From: Candidatus Kapaibacterium sp.
GTDB lineage: Bacteria > Bacteroidota > Ignavibacteria > Kapaibacteriales > UBA2268
NCBI GenBank assembly: GCA_026390695.1
Contig: JAPLFL010000101.1
Coordinates: forward strand, 3,674 to 67,673
Length of the DNA stretch: 64,000 nucleotides
Direction of reading: 5' to 3'
Position numbers and translations under genes: made by a program. The notes under the pieces are model-generated. The model was not told where the DNA came from and searched no databases. It saw nothing but the letters and a program-made list of their open reading frames with translations. Below, piece after piece: positions 3,327-64,000 of the stretch (its first letter is position 1; the number at the start of each line of letters is the position of its first letter).

Positions 3327-3459
3327 TGAGACTATCTCAAAAGCCTCATTTCTGTCATTCCTGCGAATGCAGGAATCCCCTAAAGTGGCACTGGCAGGAG
3401 ATTTCTGCATACGCAGGAATGACATTTTTGTTAAATATGTAGCTTTTGAGACAGCCTCA
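3327..3459. repeat. Single copy of the MITE-like palindromic element, with TIR-like ends TCTCAAAAGCCTCA / TTTTGAGACAGCCTCA.
   Basis: Same core as at 1253-1430; followed by a T-run at 3463-3470. Confidence 0.75.
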
Positions 3460-3682
3460 TTAGTTTTTTTAAAAATTATTTCGTAATTTGTAAATTGGTG
3501 TTTTATTTTTTTAAGTAATTTTGGATTTACATTTGATTAATTCTGATTTCATAGTAAAAGTTGCTCTGGAAGCTGTGTACGAATCAATTGGTAAAATTCA
3601 TTATTCGATTGTTCATAGGCAAGCAAAGAAAATCTATGAAGTAGATGACAAACAAATAACTTATATCGTTTCCTACTTTAAG

Positions 3683-3920
3683 GCTGTCATTTGTGCGTAT
3701 GCAGGAATCCCCAATTGCGCCATGGAATGGGATTCCCGCATTCGAGTTTGTGTGAAAACTGCAATTTCTTGTCATTCCTGCGAATGCAGGAATCCCGCTA
3801 AAGTGGCACTGGAAGGAGATTCCTGCATACGCAGGAATGACATTCTATTGGAATTTTCGTGTTTTCACACAGTCTCATGCGCGGGAATGACAATAATTCC
3901 TAATTCTTTAAGGAAATGAT
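3683..3920. repeat. Composite copy of the palindromic element. Its flanks (CGTTTCCTACTTTAAGGCTGTCATT ... TTAAGGAAATGATAT) are shared with the copy at 20921-21255.
   Basis: Direct comparison of 3663-3700 with 20921-20960, and of 3885-3920 with 21212-21255. Confidence 0.7.
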
Positions 3921-13929: not shown

Positions 13930-14200
13930 ACTTCAATAAAGCCTGTCATTCCTGCGGAAGCAGGAATCCCCAAAATAAACGAACCTGTCATTTCTGCAAA
14001 TGCAGGAATCCCCAAAATAAACAAGCCTGTCATTCCTGCGGATGCAGGAATCCCCATAATGAATAAACCTGACCATGCAACATAAACATGAAGCCAAAGA
14101 GAGAATCAAAAATGGGATTCCTGTATGCACAGGAATGACAGAAAAAATAGTGCTGTCATTCCTGCAGATGCAGGAATCCCCAAAATGAATAAACCTGACC
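13930..14200. repeat. Cluster of at least 5 copies of the GTCATTCCTGC(G/A)GA(A/T)GCAGGAATCCCC palindrome, including three 42-bp tandem units.
   Basis: Direct reading: CCTGTCATTCCTGCGGAAGCAGGAATCCCCAAAATAAACGAA repeats three times, followed by two inverted copies. Confidence 0.75.
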
Positions 14201-14377
14201 TTATAATAATGAAAAAAATAGCAAAACAAGGAAAAACAAATAAAATATATAAATAAATAAATATAAAAATGAAAATAACAGTCAATAGCATGCAATAGAA
14301 AAAACATAAATATATAATAATAAACAACTAATGAAGACAGGAAAAAATAAGAAATACAAAGGAAATCCAATAAATGA

Positions 14378-14526
14378 GCGCAGCGGAATTGTATTTAAGG
14401 ACAGCGGATTAGTATTTAAGGACAGCGGATATGTATTTAAGGACAGCGGATTTGTATTTAAGCGCAGCGGATTTGTATTTAAGGACAGCGGATTAATAAT
14501 TTAATGGAGCGGATTTGTATTAAAAG
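14378..14526. repeat. Tandem direct repeat, 7 x 21 bp, unit GACAGCGGATTTGTATTTAAG. It lies ~160 bp upstream of the GAF-PAS kinase gene.
   Basis: Seven consecutive near-identical 21-mers were read directly from the sequence. Confidence 0.85.
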
Positions 14527-20920: not shown

Positions 20921-21255
20921 GATCGTTTCCTACTTGAAGGCTGTCATTCCTGCGTATGAGCCTGTGTGAAAACATCAATTTCTTGTCATTCCTGCGCATG
21001 CAGGAATCCCCTGATTGGCACTGGAAGGAGATTCCCGCATTCGAGCCTGTGTGAAAACATCAATTTCTTGTCATTCCTGCGCATGCAGGAATCCCCTGAT
21101 TGGCACTGGAAGGAGATTCCCGCATTCGAGCCTTGTGAAAACATCAATTTCTTGTCATTCCTGCGCATGCAGGAATCCCCTGATTGGCACTGGAAGGAGA
21201 TTCCCGCAGTGCGGGAATGACAAGAATTCCTAATTCATTAAGGAAATGATATAAA
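20921..21255. repeat. Three tandem ~85-bp copies of the palindromic element, with a composite flank ending TTAAGGAAATGATAT.
   Basis: Unit starts at 20962, 21047 and 21131; the core is GTCATTCCTGCGCATGCAGGAATCCCC. Confidence 0.8.
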
Positions 21256-40364: not shown

Positions 40365-40454
40365 AAATATATTTTTGAAGTCTATTAATTTATTTACAAT
40401 ACATATAAATTATCATCGTCATCATCTCCGCAATTGACATATTTATTAATGTTG

Positions 40455-40620
40455 CCGAAATTCATGCAAAAACATGAATGCGGGGGAACCACTACCGGGG
40501 CGAATTCTCATAGTTCAGAGAAAGGATACTTCCAAATCCGAGCCCGTCAGCTAACCTCGTAGGCTAATGGAAGAGCATTGGACAGACAATTACCACTGCC
40601 CTTGCTGCTGTGGTTTTTTT
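40455..40620 (+). ncRNA. Candidate ydaO-yuaA (c-di-AMP) riboswitch with an intrinsic terminator, in the 5' leader of the KimA-like gene.
   Basis: Ordered conserved-looking blocks GGGGGAACC, GGGGCGAAUUC and CCCGUCAGCUAACCUCGUAGGC, with nested pairings CUUCCA/UGGAAG and AGCC/GGCU. The terminator is AACCAC-loop-GUGGUU plus U7 at 40592-40620, and AACCAC also occurs at 40486, allowing anti-terminator competition. Family assignment is from memory of the ydaO consensus. Confidence 0.5.
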
Positions 40621-48209: not shown

Positions 48210-48395
48210 TGAATATTGGTTTATAAAAATAGAATGCTGGATCTTAAAAATAGAACATTGGATTTTAAAATTGAGATATTGGATTTTAAAAATGAAACAT
48301 TGGATTTTAAAAATGAAACATTGGATTTTAAAAATAGAATGCTGGATTTTAAAAATGGTACATTGGATTTTAAAAATAGAATCTATAAATTTGTA
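48210..48395. repeat. Tandem direct repeat, about 8 x 21 bp (TGAAACATTGGATTTTAAAAA), ~70 bp upstream of the 48464-49072 gene.
   Basis: Read directly: seven good copies and one degenerate copy. Confidence 0.9.
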
Positions 48396-48463
48396 TTTCT
48401 AAAACGGTTTTAAAGAATTTTTAATAAATTAATTGGTTTTTTTAACTATATTGGATTAATACT

Positions 48464-49084: not shown

Positions 49085-49250
49085 TCTGTCATTCCGAACG
49101 GAGTGAGGAATCCAGGAGGAGATATTTATGAAAAAAAGGTATGTTTACATATTGGCATCCCCAAAAAATGGCTTTAATTGAGGAAATGAATCCATTATGG
49201 AAAGATTTGAGTAAATGATGGTATTTGGATTCCTCACTTCGTTCGGATTG
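49085..49250. repeat. MITE-like element with ~24-bp inverted termini (GTCATTCCGAACGGAGTGAGGAATCC / GGATTCCTCACTTCGTTCGGATTGAC), a variant of the GTCATTCC family.
   Basis: Direct reading of both arms. Confidence 0.7.
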
Positions 49251-62470: not shown

Positions 62471-62526
62471 ATATTTCTATATCGACAGTTCTTTTATCAG
62501 TTATATCATTTCTTATTTCAGAAAAA

Positions 62527-62810
62527 TAAAATCAAGCTCAGACGAGGACGTCTAATATCATTTCCTATTTGAAAAAGGATAAATATTCCCTTCGACTACG
62601 CTCAGGGAGCTGAATTGCTCGTTGAGCGGAGTCGAAACGAGCTAATAATTGTTCTTATTTCAAATAGGAAATGATATAAGCTACTATAAATCAAAGTTGA
62701 CAAACGTCCTCGTCTGTTTTATCTACTATAAATCAAAGTAGAACAGAGGTCCTCGTCTGTTTTATCGATTAATTTCAAATAGGAAATGATATTAGATCAG
62801 TTATAAAGGA
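62527..62810. mobile_element. Composite MITE-like element. Its terminal inverted repeats ATATCATTTCCTATTTGAAA / TTTCAAATAGGAAATGATAT occur three times, it carries nested GACGAGGAC inverted repeats, and its cargo is the 50-nt hairpin at 62581-62634.
   Basis: Inverted repeats were read directly. The TIR core (ATATCRTTTCCTA ... TAGGAAATGATAT) also frames the elements at 3663-3920 and 20921-21255. No transposase gene is in the window. Confidence 0.55.
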
Positions 62811-62840: not shown

Positions 62841-64000
62841 TTATAAATTCGCTATGGCTTCAAAAAACTTACGGCTTTGTTTTTCATACTCAAAGTGCTC
62901 GATTGCAAATTTCTGTCCGGCTTTTGCAAGTCTTTCGCGGGTTGGAATGTCCGAATAGATTAGTTTAATTTGTTCGGATAATTTTTCAAAATCAGTTTGT
63001 TCGAATAATAATCCGGTTTCATTGTGCTTAATAATTTCGGGAACGCCTCCCGAATTTGTTCCGATAACGGGGCAAGCCGCCATCATAGCTTCAATCAGCA
63101 CCAAACCAAGAGTTTCGGAGCGAGAAGGAAGGATAAATAAATCGAAACTGCTCATTAGCGCGGGTATTTCATCGTTAAAAGGCAGAATGAGAACTTTATT
63201 GGACAAGCCTTCTTTTTCAATGAGATCGGTGACTTGCTCAGTGTAGCCGCTCTGACCGATAGATTCTTCGCCAACAAGCACAAGCAATGAATCGGGAATA
63301 TCAGCTTTGGCAAAGGCTTTCACAGCCGTTAATTGATCCTTATGCTGATCGAATCTGGCAATGTAACCGATGATAAATATATGTAATGTGAAAATCTGTT
63401 TTGACACAGAACTATCAGAAGTTTGATAATTGCCATTCCTGCAAATGCAGAAATCCCCTTCGCCATTATTAACTTTGGGGATTTCTGCATTCGCGTCAAT
63501 GCCAGCTTTAAGAATCTCGTTAAAAACAATCCTGTCTTCAACTTTATTTCTGTTCAAGAAGTGCTCGGATTCGATGCCGCATGGAATAACTGAGATTTTA
63601 TCGCTTGGGAAAATCGTTGATTGGGGCAATTGCAGCTTCATTTGCTCGGTGATAACAATTGCGTAATCGAGATTGCGGTAAATCCAATTATGGAAGAAGT
63701 CAATTTTCCTCAAACCGGATTGCATTTGCTGGTAGAGGACGATTTTGGTTTTTTTGGAGAATAAATTTCTTGCAAGAACGGCTATAGAGAGGTCTTTGGT
63801 GGTTGGAACAATACAGATGTCGGTTTTATACTTCTTGAATAAACCTCCAAGTTTAATGGCAGCAGAGATGTCGATGTATTTGAATTGAACATTTAAAAAT
63901 TCGCAATTGAGATTTAACTTTCCGGCATATTTATGAAGCCGGCTGTTTTGTTTACAAACCAAAACTGCACTATTGCCATAGCGAACGGCATCGGAGGCAC
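62841..64000 (-). CDS. Family-4 (GT-B) glycosyltransferase. The 5' end lies beyond the window (the frame is open to 64000). It carries an in-frame palindromic-element insertion between its two domains.
   Basis: C-terminal GT4 motif EGFGLV-like (ETLGLVLIEAMMAACPVIGTNSGGVPEII...GLLFE); the reading frame continues without a stop to the window edge, and the ORF-track 'M' at 63962 is a TTG. Confidence 0.75.
   Translation of the reverse strand, partial: ASDAVRYGNSAVLVCKQNSRLHKYAGKLNLNCEFLNVQFKYIDISAAIKLGGLFKKYKTDICIVPTTKDLSIAVLARNLFSKKTKIVLYQQMQSGLRKIDFFHNWIYRNLDYAIVITEQMKLQLPQSTIFPSDKISVIPCGIESEHFLNRNKVEDRIVFNEILKAGIDANAEIPKVNNGEGDFCICRNGNYQTSDSSVSKQIFTLHIFIIGYIARFDQHKDQLTAVKAFAKADIPDSLLVLVGEESIGQSGYTEQVTDLIEKEGLSNKVLILPFNDEIPALMSSFDLFILPSRSETLGLVLIEAMMAACPVIGTNSGGVPEIIKHNETGLLFEQTDFEKLSEQIKLIYSDIPTRERLAKAGQKFAIEHFEYEKQSRKFFEAIANL
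63424..63494. repeat. Degenerate copy of the GTCATTCC palindromic element lying in-frame inside the GT4 coding sequence.
   Basis: CCATTCCTGCAAATGCAGAAATCCCC ... GGGGATTTCTGCATTCGCG read directly; translated in-frame as ...GEGDFCICRNGNYQ... with no stop. Confidence 0.7.

Follow-up and report, generated by a model that had tools for sequence, protein, structure and literature searches.

Apparent in-frame insertion of a palindromic Ssn-related repeat into the inter-domain linker of a glycosyltransferase gene of Candidatus Kapaibacterium

A 64,000-nucleotide stretch of contig JAPLFL010000101.1 from Candidatus Kapaibacterium sp. (assembly GCA_026390695.1; the whole stretch is referred to as the window) ends in a glycosyltransferase family 4 (GT4) gene that carries a palindromic repeat within its coding sequence. 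The explanation we prefer, with a probability of roughly 0.8, is that a palindromic element consisting of a pair of Ssn-related motifs (SRMs) inserted into the DNA for the linker between the two domains of the enzyme, that the reading frame was kept while a disordered loop of 40–41 amino acids (aa) was added, and that the copy seen today is an old fossil. Sequence alignments and a structural model show that the palindrome belongs to a repeat family, that it is an insertion relative to homologues, that it is read in frame, where in the protein it lies and that the product keeps its fold; the mobility of the element and its mechanism we infer. A preliminary description of the window had already proposed an in-frame palindrome at this site and had likened it to the Rickettsia palindromic elements (RPEs).

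The host gene occupies positions 62841–64000 on the minus strand, where it is truncated by the end of the window; its open reading frame (ORF) runs from 62841 past that end and shows no interruption at the palindrome. The full product, P0001, has 411 aa and starts at a TTG codon ~76 nt outside the window. It is 100% identical to the window ORF, is annotated as "glycosyltransferase family 4, Candidatus Kapabacteria" in a metagenome-assembled genome (MAG), and formed a singleton cluster in a protein search. Pfam assigns residues 64–171 to Glyco_transf_4 and residues 235–389 to Glycos_transf_1, and the insert lies between them, in agreement with the earlier placement between the N- and C-terminal Rossmann halves. 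An AlphaFold2 (AF2) model built from a 91-sequence alignment has a predicted local distance difference test score (pLDDT) of 92 and a predicted template modelling score (pTM) of 0.89, with a confident GT-B fold and both domains at pLDDT >90. Searched with Foldseek, this model resembles the GT4 structures HepE, BshA and a Rickettsia glycosyltransferase (TM 0.79–0.88). All family-invariant residues of the homologue alignment (K246, G269, E321, G324, E329, G344) are kept in P0001, including the conserved E-x7-E region of GT4 enzymes (E321 and E329). By sequence and model, the host gene can be classified as a GT4 glycosyltransferase gene of the GT-B fold, in a genome with 35% GC.

P0001 was aligned first with 19 and then with 90 homologues at 25–50% identity. 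The linker segment matching its residues 176–245 measures 28–31 aa in 90/90 homologues and 70 aa in P0001, and the gene therefore holds ~40–41 extra codons. According to the homologue alignment and the AF2 model, these fall within 63387–63512 (minus strand; P0001 residues ~189–230, LKAGIDANAEIPKVNNGEGDFCICRNGNYQTSDSSVSKQIFT), a span whose ends are uncertain by a few codons. The ORF reads through the palindrome as ...AGIDANAEIPKVNNGEGDFCICRNGNYQTSD..., where the palindrome proper (~72–74 nt) encodes (A)GIDANAEIPKVNNGEGDFCICRNG(N), i.e., 24–25 aa of the insert; the DNA behind the other ~16 extra residues (YQTSDSSVSKQIFT...) includes CTGTGTCAAAAC. The insertion of ~23 aa that had been estimated initially is thus about right for the palindrome, but too short for the insert as a whole. 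An alignment of GT4 homologues had been suggested as a check and indeed reveals the inter-domain insertion; the finding named in advance as refuting it, namely the same segment in orthologues, did not occur (0/90 homologues).

The position of the insert is compatible with the fold of the host protein, as is expected of RPEs: Pfam domains lie on either side, and the AF2 model shows coil (residues 193–226) between helix 178–192, the last of the N-domain, and strand 234–239, the first of the C-domain. Residues 191–230 are the only weak stretch of the model (block-mean pLDDT 62, 47, 37 and 53), with residues 206–220 below 50. The insert is therefore modelled as a disordered loop at the first inter-domain crossover, with the GT-B fold otherwise intact, and the surface loop for which the preliminary description had suggested looking with AlphaFold is seen as a low-confidence coil on a confident fold.

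The palindrome belongs to a repeat family that is abundant in the window. GTCATTCC occurs 19 times where 1.8 occurrences are expected, and the 18-mer core GCAAATGCAGAAATCCCC has 16 matches with up to three mismatches (0.08 expected). As is typical of SRMs, the copies are many, exceed the expectation from shuffled sequence and are clustered, at six loci in 64 kb. The family consensus reads GTCATTCCTGCGAATGCAGGAATCCCC, a loop of 15–18 nt, and GGGGATTCCTGCATTCGCAGGAATGAC. Searched by blastn against the rest of the window, the segment from the glycosyltransferase (GT) gene aligns full-length, loop included, between 63428–63505 and 3427–3352 (E = 7e-11). Likewise, an nhmmer profile built from six intergenic copies, from which the GT copy was excluded, matches 63428–63505 over profile positions 3–78 of 81 (E = 1.6e-12), which confirms the degenerate copy that had been reported in the gene. 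The profile detects no other intragenic copy within the window; every other copy cluster (1203–1407, 3354–3891, 13945–14181 and 20943–21221) is intergenic. On this evidence, the palindrome in the GT gene can be regarded as a true member of the GTCATTCC palindrome family.

The GT copy is composed of a left arm at 63431–63458 on the plus strand (TGCCATTCCTGCAAATGCAGAAATCCCC), an SRM-type half that fits a relaxed SRM pattern; a loop of 18 nt at 63459–63476 (+), whose homologues among the intergenic copies are the loops of the CCAGTGCCACTTTAG subfamily; and a right arm at 63477–63504 (+; GGGGATTTCTGCATTCGCGTCAATGCCA), whose outer end has decayed from GGAATGAC to GTCAATGCC. The coordinates given at first, 63424–63494, denote the same object, but are a few bases off. 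As in MITEs (miniature transposable elements with inverted repeats), terminal inverted repeats are present: the two 28-nt arms are 82% complementary, with one mismatch in the inner 18 nt, and the arms of the family consensus are near-perfect. In the sense of the gene, the palindrome folds as RNA at −40.4 kcal/mol (z = −6.4; 0/200 shuffles as good), and the insert as a whole, folded as DNA, reaches z = −5.4.

The small hairpins within each arm, by comparison, are degraded. The half-hairpin of the left arm is weakened (−2.3 kcal/mol, z −1.5) and that of the right arm (−2.9 kcal/mol, z −0.4) has lost its canonical form, while the half-hairpins of the intergenic copy 3353–3424 reach −7.8 kcal/mol (z −5.7) and −4.3 kcal/mol (z −3.6). 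The GT copy is therefore a decayed derivative rather than a functional SRM. Together with arms that are ~14% diverged, this marks the copy as an old fossil: decay has reached its outer ends and both of its small SRM hairpins, and the long stem between the arms persists. Both arms (63441–63458 and 63477–63494) show the same departure from the consensus, GCAGGAAT to GCAGAAAT and ATTCCTGC to ATTTCTGC, a paired G>A/C>T change that keeps the long stem perfect and costs each half-hairpin one base pair; it could reflect either compensatory change or arm-to-arm correction. Rfam recognizes no RNA family at the GT site, and neither a terminator nor a sense-strand promoter was found at the hairpin, behind which there is no terminator-like tail. 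A sigma-70-like site with an 11/12 match (TTGACA, 18 nt, GATAAT) is located within the insert at 63401–63430 (+), antisense to the GT gene and facing the palindrome; it may be a chance match, and the sigma-70 consensus may not apply to the host phylum.

Each arm of the family is a small hairpin in itself, ATTCCTGC-GAAT-GCAGGAAT, with GTC at its head and CC at its tail. It corresponds to the Neisseria Transformation Sequence (NTS), CGTCATTCCCGCGMAVGCGGGAATCYRG, which contains the Neisseria dRS3 sequence ATTCCC-N8-GGGAAT and is bound and cut as single-stranded DNA (ssDNA) by small GIY-YIG nucleases (SsnA, cd10448); Rickettsia and Wolbachia are among the genomes rich in SRMs (Nat Commun 2025; PMC11893778). 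Term searches of the text of that study found no mention of RPEs, MITEs or insertions into coding sequence. The intergenic copy at 1252–1279 matches the published SRM pattern, HGTCWYN(0-2)YYVSBRHN(0-5)WNVSBRGN(0-2)RNCYNB, exactly; the other copies and the left arm of the GT copy fit only if the pattern is loosened at three positions (to allow a T:A stem pair, GCC for GTC, and A for G). The arms in the window have the form GTCATTCC-NGC-GAAT-GCN-GGAATCC, i.e., the NTS core, and share with SRMs that they are multi-copy, clustered, hairpin-forming and provided with oriented flanks. They differ in that most copies in this genome of 35% GC have T:A where the published pattern wants C:G or G:C, and in that they mainly form inverted pairs of ~70 nt. 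The SRM half-hairpin with its 8-bp stem, 4-nt loop and oriented non-palindromic flanks is found in 3353–3424, but not in the GT copy, which lacks the half-hairpins that Ssn would recognize; moreover, the GT copy is intragenic, whereas the published repeats are described around genes (PMC11893778). Despite these differences, the palindrome family is best assigned to the SRM/NTS pair class.

The ssn genes are typically flanked by SRMs in an arrangement resembling that of insertion sequences (IS) (PMC11893778). A scan with TCATTCCNGCNNATGCNGGAATC, restricted to one genome per species, yielded at least 119 loci in Proteobacteria, Chloroflexota, Planctomycetota, Ignavibacteria, Kapaibacterium, Cyanobacteria, Saccharibacteria and more; among the matches listed, the two N positions of the stem covary and many loci have an inverted partner. 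ORFs of the GIY-YIG type with 95–97 aa stand beside SRMs in the contigs L015, L079 and L107 from other phyla (Pfam E 1e-14 to 1e-18), flanked on both sides in L015 and L079. In the window, a tblastn search with the Ssn-like ORFs of L015 and L107 led to a match at 49165–49212. It lies within 49086–49250 (+), where a variant SRM pair (GTCATTCCGAACGGAGTGAGGAATCC ... GGATTCCTCACTTCGTTCGGATTGAC), of another SRM subfamily than the palindromes, encloses ~110 nt with an internally deleted GIY-YIG (Ssn-type) remnant, MKKRYVYILASPKNG... / ...KMALIEEMNPLWKDLSK*, i.e., the first 15 and the last 17 codons of the gene joined out of frame. This locus looks like a stage on the way, by deletion, from an SRM-ssn-SRM unit to a bare SRM-loop-SRM palindrome, and on the strength of this resemblance the palindromes would be non-autonomous derivatives of SRM-ssn-SRM units.

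In-frame insertion of SRM pairs is not confined to the GT gene. When 239 loci with ~290 motif instances were screened for long ORFs spanning the motif, three convincing further cases were obtained on unrelated contigs, each adding ~22–29 aa. In a Pirellulaceae MAG (L102, 2396–4987, +), the peptide RHSRAGGNPGVSRGDLDSRIRGND lies upstream of the DECH box of a type I restriction R subunit (HsdR); the alignment to PDB entry 3h1t (E = 1e-126) is broken at the insert, which is absent from 3h1t. The other two are a polyprenyl synthetase (L143, 172–1098, −; insert 75 nt) and a DinB-type polymerase IV (L150, 1559–2959, −; insert 78 nt), the latter with ~22 aa that are not in PDB entry 7yll. What is added in all three amounts essentially to the SRM pair. 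The inserts of L143 and L150 are bounded by GTCAT... and ...ATGAC and are read in the same peptide frames as the one in the GT gene, VIPANAGI... and ...R.RG.D. This recurrence is attributable to which frames lack stops: 3–5 of 6 frames are free of stops in the six SRM pairs tested, compared with two of six in the GT insert, tested as a 135-nt unit. High-GC ORFs over SRMs in L028, L041, L043, L046, L076, L097 and L109 were set aside as spurious-looking, judged by their Arg/Ala-rich translations alone. A literature search for repeat-derived peptides returned nothing relevant. Taken together, SRM/NTS pairs might be mobile, MITE-like derivatives of SRM-ssn-SRM units that occur across phyla and repeatedly insert in frame into conserved enzymes (GT4, HsdR, DinB, polyprenyl synthetase), each time adding a stereotyped loop of ~24–26 aa (VIPANAGI...R.RG.D). 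The RPE phenomenon would then be a general one, tied to GIY-YIG Ssn nucleases, with RPEs and Wolbachia palindromic elements (WPEs) perhaps as the rickettsial branch of the same superfamily. We advance this wider proposal tentatively and would not give it even odds.

The part of the GT insert outside the palindrome may carry a trace of a second repeat. At 63387–63409 (+), the sequence TGTGAAAA-TCT-GTTTTGACACAG resembles decayed back-to-back ends of a second module, with the 12-mer CTGTGTCAAAAC at 63398–63409 on the minus strand. The corresponding motif of the module, CTGTGTGAAAAC, has seven matches in the window with at most one mismatch (0.21 expected), of which six lie beside family copies and the seventh in the GT insert. 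No wider alignment of the stretch was obtained by blastn against the rest of the window, and it has no significant fold. The matches are suggestive of a fragment of the second module. That the ~16 residues might instead have come from duplicating the native linker helix (RIVFNEI vs KQIFTLH; 4xso alignment) is not supported, the DNA similarity being at chance level (local score 6).

The following course of events best explains these observations. An element that is or was mobile, built from two inverted hairpins of the SRM/NTS type around a short loop, probably landed in the DNA for the inter-domain linker, and ~48 nt with the fragment of the second module would have arrived together with it. 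The protein gained 40–41 residues as a disordered surface loop between the Rossmann domains, with the catalytic core untouched. Since the insert adds whole codons only and brings no stop in the frame used, the gene stayed open. The family itself may spread as a non-autonomous derivative of SRM-ssn-SRM units, via ssDNA and by means of a small GIY-YIG Ssn nuclease, and the insertion in the GT gene was presumably tolerated by selection rather than beneficial.

Several points weigh against this account. No target-site duplication (TSD), no direct repeats and no other scar of insertion were found bordering the GT insert, although TSDs and direct repeats such as these are expected of a MITE; elements that move as single-strand hairpins, such as IS200/IS605 and repetitive extragenic palindromic sequences (REPs), likewise lack TSDs. 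An orthologue with more than 50% identity was not found in the databases searched, so that a true empty site is missing and the ends of the insert are uncertain as noted above; metagenome contigs scanned with degenerate codons for GYIARFDQHKDQ yielded 0 matches. The link of the ~16 extra residues to the repeat family is weak, consisting of one 12-mer with one mismatch, and these residues could instead be a lineage-specific extension of the linker. In addition, phmmer pairs NYQTSDSSVSK of the insert, weakly, with LYKTSPSDISK of the remote homologue PDB 4xso, an alignment that gives a hint of native origin for some of the added stretch. As to the presumed mobilizer, regular-expression and tblastn searches found no intact Ssn gene in the window, only the remnant. 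We also know of no demonstration that SRM pairs transpose, and the IS-like architecture was raised as a hypothesis only (PMC11893778).

The degenerate outer ends and the 4xso alignment might suggest that the whole segment is a native linker, or a lineage-specific extension, that merely resembles the repeat, or even that the repeat family was seeded from the GT gene. However, the segment is absent from all homologues in the alignment, and arms and loop align over their full length to the intergenic copies at the E-values given above; since the motif occurs in many phyla, it cannot derive from the GT gene. We consider such an origin highly improbable. An assembly artefact, with the element put into the gene by a chimeric join at repeats or by the collapse of a repeat, appears just as far-fetched. 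The contig stems from a MAG, and repeats of this family do break assemblies, as is apparent from the Logan contig L001 (SRR20698641), which ends within the repeat-rich spacer at window position 62766. Nevertheless, this second assembly, which comes from different software and is on record for 2 samples, agrees with the window without a difference over an overlap of 1235 bp and yields an identical product of 411 aa, so that the translation in frame without disruption of the ORF, as claimed in the preliminary description, is found there as well. Moreover, the two halves of the gene match the same homologues, collinear and in frame, which a random join would not give, and the GT copy is diverged from every other copy and is therefore not a misplaced pile-up of reads. 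The independent identical contig and the collinear gene halves make a chimera unlikely.

The functional state of the gene is a separate question, for which the preliminary description had offered protein novelty or a cryptic pseudogene. The enzyme might have lost its activity through the insertion, say because the hinge needed for domain closure is disturbed, with too little time elapsed for stop codons to appear. The narrow range of linker lengths among the 90 homologues suggests constraint on the segment, the insert is modelled as disordered, and P0001 is a singleton cluster, all of which would fit a pseudogene. However, the divergence of its arms, the decay of its ends and the loss of its half-hairpins make the element visibly old, and the 411-aa ORF is nonetheless intact. 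An unconstrained ORF of 1.2 kb at 35% GC would soon gain stops, and the other frames of the insert already contain several; the invariant residues and both confidently modelled domains are retained as well. An old copy in an intact ORF of a 35% GC genome favors a gene that is still constrained, and loss of function seems unlikely. Co-option of the insert is slightly less likely still. The loop, with two Cys and charged residues, might serve as an interaction surface, the mRNA hairpin of about −40 kcal/mol might regulate translation or mRNA stability, or the promoter-like antisense site might play a part. In support of a function, the half-hairpins have decayed but the long stem has not, apart from a single paired change, the sigma-70-like site is present, and the peptide frame VIPANAGI...R.RG.D recurs in other in-frame cases. 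Yet there is only one covarying pair, AF2 assigns the loop no structure, and the recurrent frame is explained by the distribution of stops; scans for sigma-70 sites are weak evidence that may not hold in this phylum, and no terminator-like tail follows the hairpin. Intact ORF, conserved catalytic residues and confident fold thus favor an insertion that was tolerated, and is probably neutral, in a gene that still functions.

The intergenic loci of the window show the family in other arrangements. At 1203–1407, a cluster of family copies contains an SRM pair nested in a second element, which in turn lies in the loop of another SRM hairpin. Family copies at 3354–3423, 3686–3735 and 3771–3841 are combined with inverted repeats of the second module in the region 3354–3891, and 20943–21221 is a tandem array of family copies with a unit of ~85 nt. 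The second element at 1203–1407 (also at 3686–3891 and 20943–21221) has perfect 15-bp terminal inverted repeats, AGACTGTGTGAAAAC / GTTTTCACACAGTCT, with the SRM pair inside, and sits in the tetraloop of the other SRM hairpin. It is bordered by a 6-bp duplication, CGAATG at 1213–1218 and 1348–1353 and CATTCG/CATGCG at the 3735/3876 junctions, and looks like a nested MITE that targets the loop of SRM hairpins. In the region 13945–14181, between two sensor-kinase-like genes, single SRM hairpins (CCTGTCATTCCTGCGGAAGCAGGAATCCCCAAAATAAACGAA-like units) recur every ~42 nt in an array, as direct repeats and not as inverted pairs. At 14331–14504 and 48216–48413, short ORFs consist of tandem peptide repeats (FKDSG... 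and LDFKN... units), a sign that the spacers adjoining SRM clusters hold more tandem repeats at the DNA level. The spacer at 62500–62800, just downstream of the GT gene, is crowded with other repeat families: ATATCATTTCCTATTTGAAA and AGACGAGGACGT both occur there in inverted copies, and 62591–62636 forms a 20-bp hairpin. The sole Rfam match in the window is a cyclic di-AMP (c-di-AMP) riboswitch at 40443–40580 (+; RF00379, 91.6 bits, E = 3e-20).

Taken by itself, the single insertion in the GT gene is probably neutral and of modest importance; its recurrence across phyla and the link to Ssn, if true, would be of greater significance. The position of the copy is evidence that pairs of SRM hairpins have reached new sites, coding sequence included. 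Together with the cases from other genomes, it also provides natural examples of GT-B, helicase and Y-family polymerase folds that tolerate loops of 24–40 aa at defined sites. For annotation, IPANAGI and RG.D peptides inside conserved proteins should be taken as a warning of repeat-derived sequence.

In-frame palindromic insertions are best known from Rickettsia. The GT gene shows an equal result for a genome of free-living Kapabacteria, where the repeat is of the recently defined class of Ssn-related hairpins. In-frame intragenic MITEs are documented, and RPEs are the extreme case, being elements of ~150 bp in many Rickettsia genes at positions compatible with the protein fold; according to the work of Ogata et al. 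(2000, 2002), nearly half of them are intragenic (reviewed in PMC10969869). The GT site resembles them in that a palindromic repeat (RPE and insert being roughly 100–150 bp) is located in frame in an unrelated housekeeping-type gene, is translated with the host protein into a fold-compatible peptide and has stop-poor frames. It differs in its host, which belongs to the Fibrobacteres-Chlorobi-Bacteroidetes (FCB) group and not to the Rickettsiales, and in that one of six family loci in the window is intragenic. The RPE-like behavior ascribed to the element at first therefore holds as a functional analogy, but its family is that of SRM/NTS pairs rather than a demonstrated relative of RPEs. A deeper link between RPEs and SRMs is possible, given that Rickettsia and Wolbachia are among the SRM-rich genomes. 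No SRMs were seen in the first 50 kb of the R. felis plasmid pRF, a scan that is uninformative rather than negative, and our literature search found no paper joining "Rickettsia palindromic" with GIY-YIG.

MITEs and REP-like intragenic repeats (ERIC, Correia, BOX, QMITE; PMC10969869) are similar to the SRM pairs in being short non-coding repeats with terminal inverted repeats and occasional in-frame ORF fusions. As in MITEs, a putative autonomous relative can be named, the SRM-ssn-SRM unit, with what may be its deleted intermediate at 49086–49250. However, the GT site has no TSD, and the presumed mobilizer is a GIY-YIG nuclease acting on ssDNA, not a DDE or Y1 transposase. A further comparison is offered by REPs and bacterial interspersed mosaic elements (BIMEs) with their REP-associated tyrosine transposases (RAYTs), which are Y1 transposases of the IS200/IS605 type. 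SRM pairs lack the GTAG head of these repeats, and the enzyme fold is GIY-YIG instead of HUH. What both systems would have in common are hairpins recognized as ssDNA, inverted pairs that flank the gene of a small single-domain nuclease, and insertion without TSDs.

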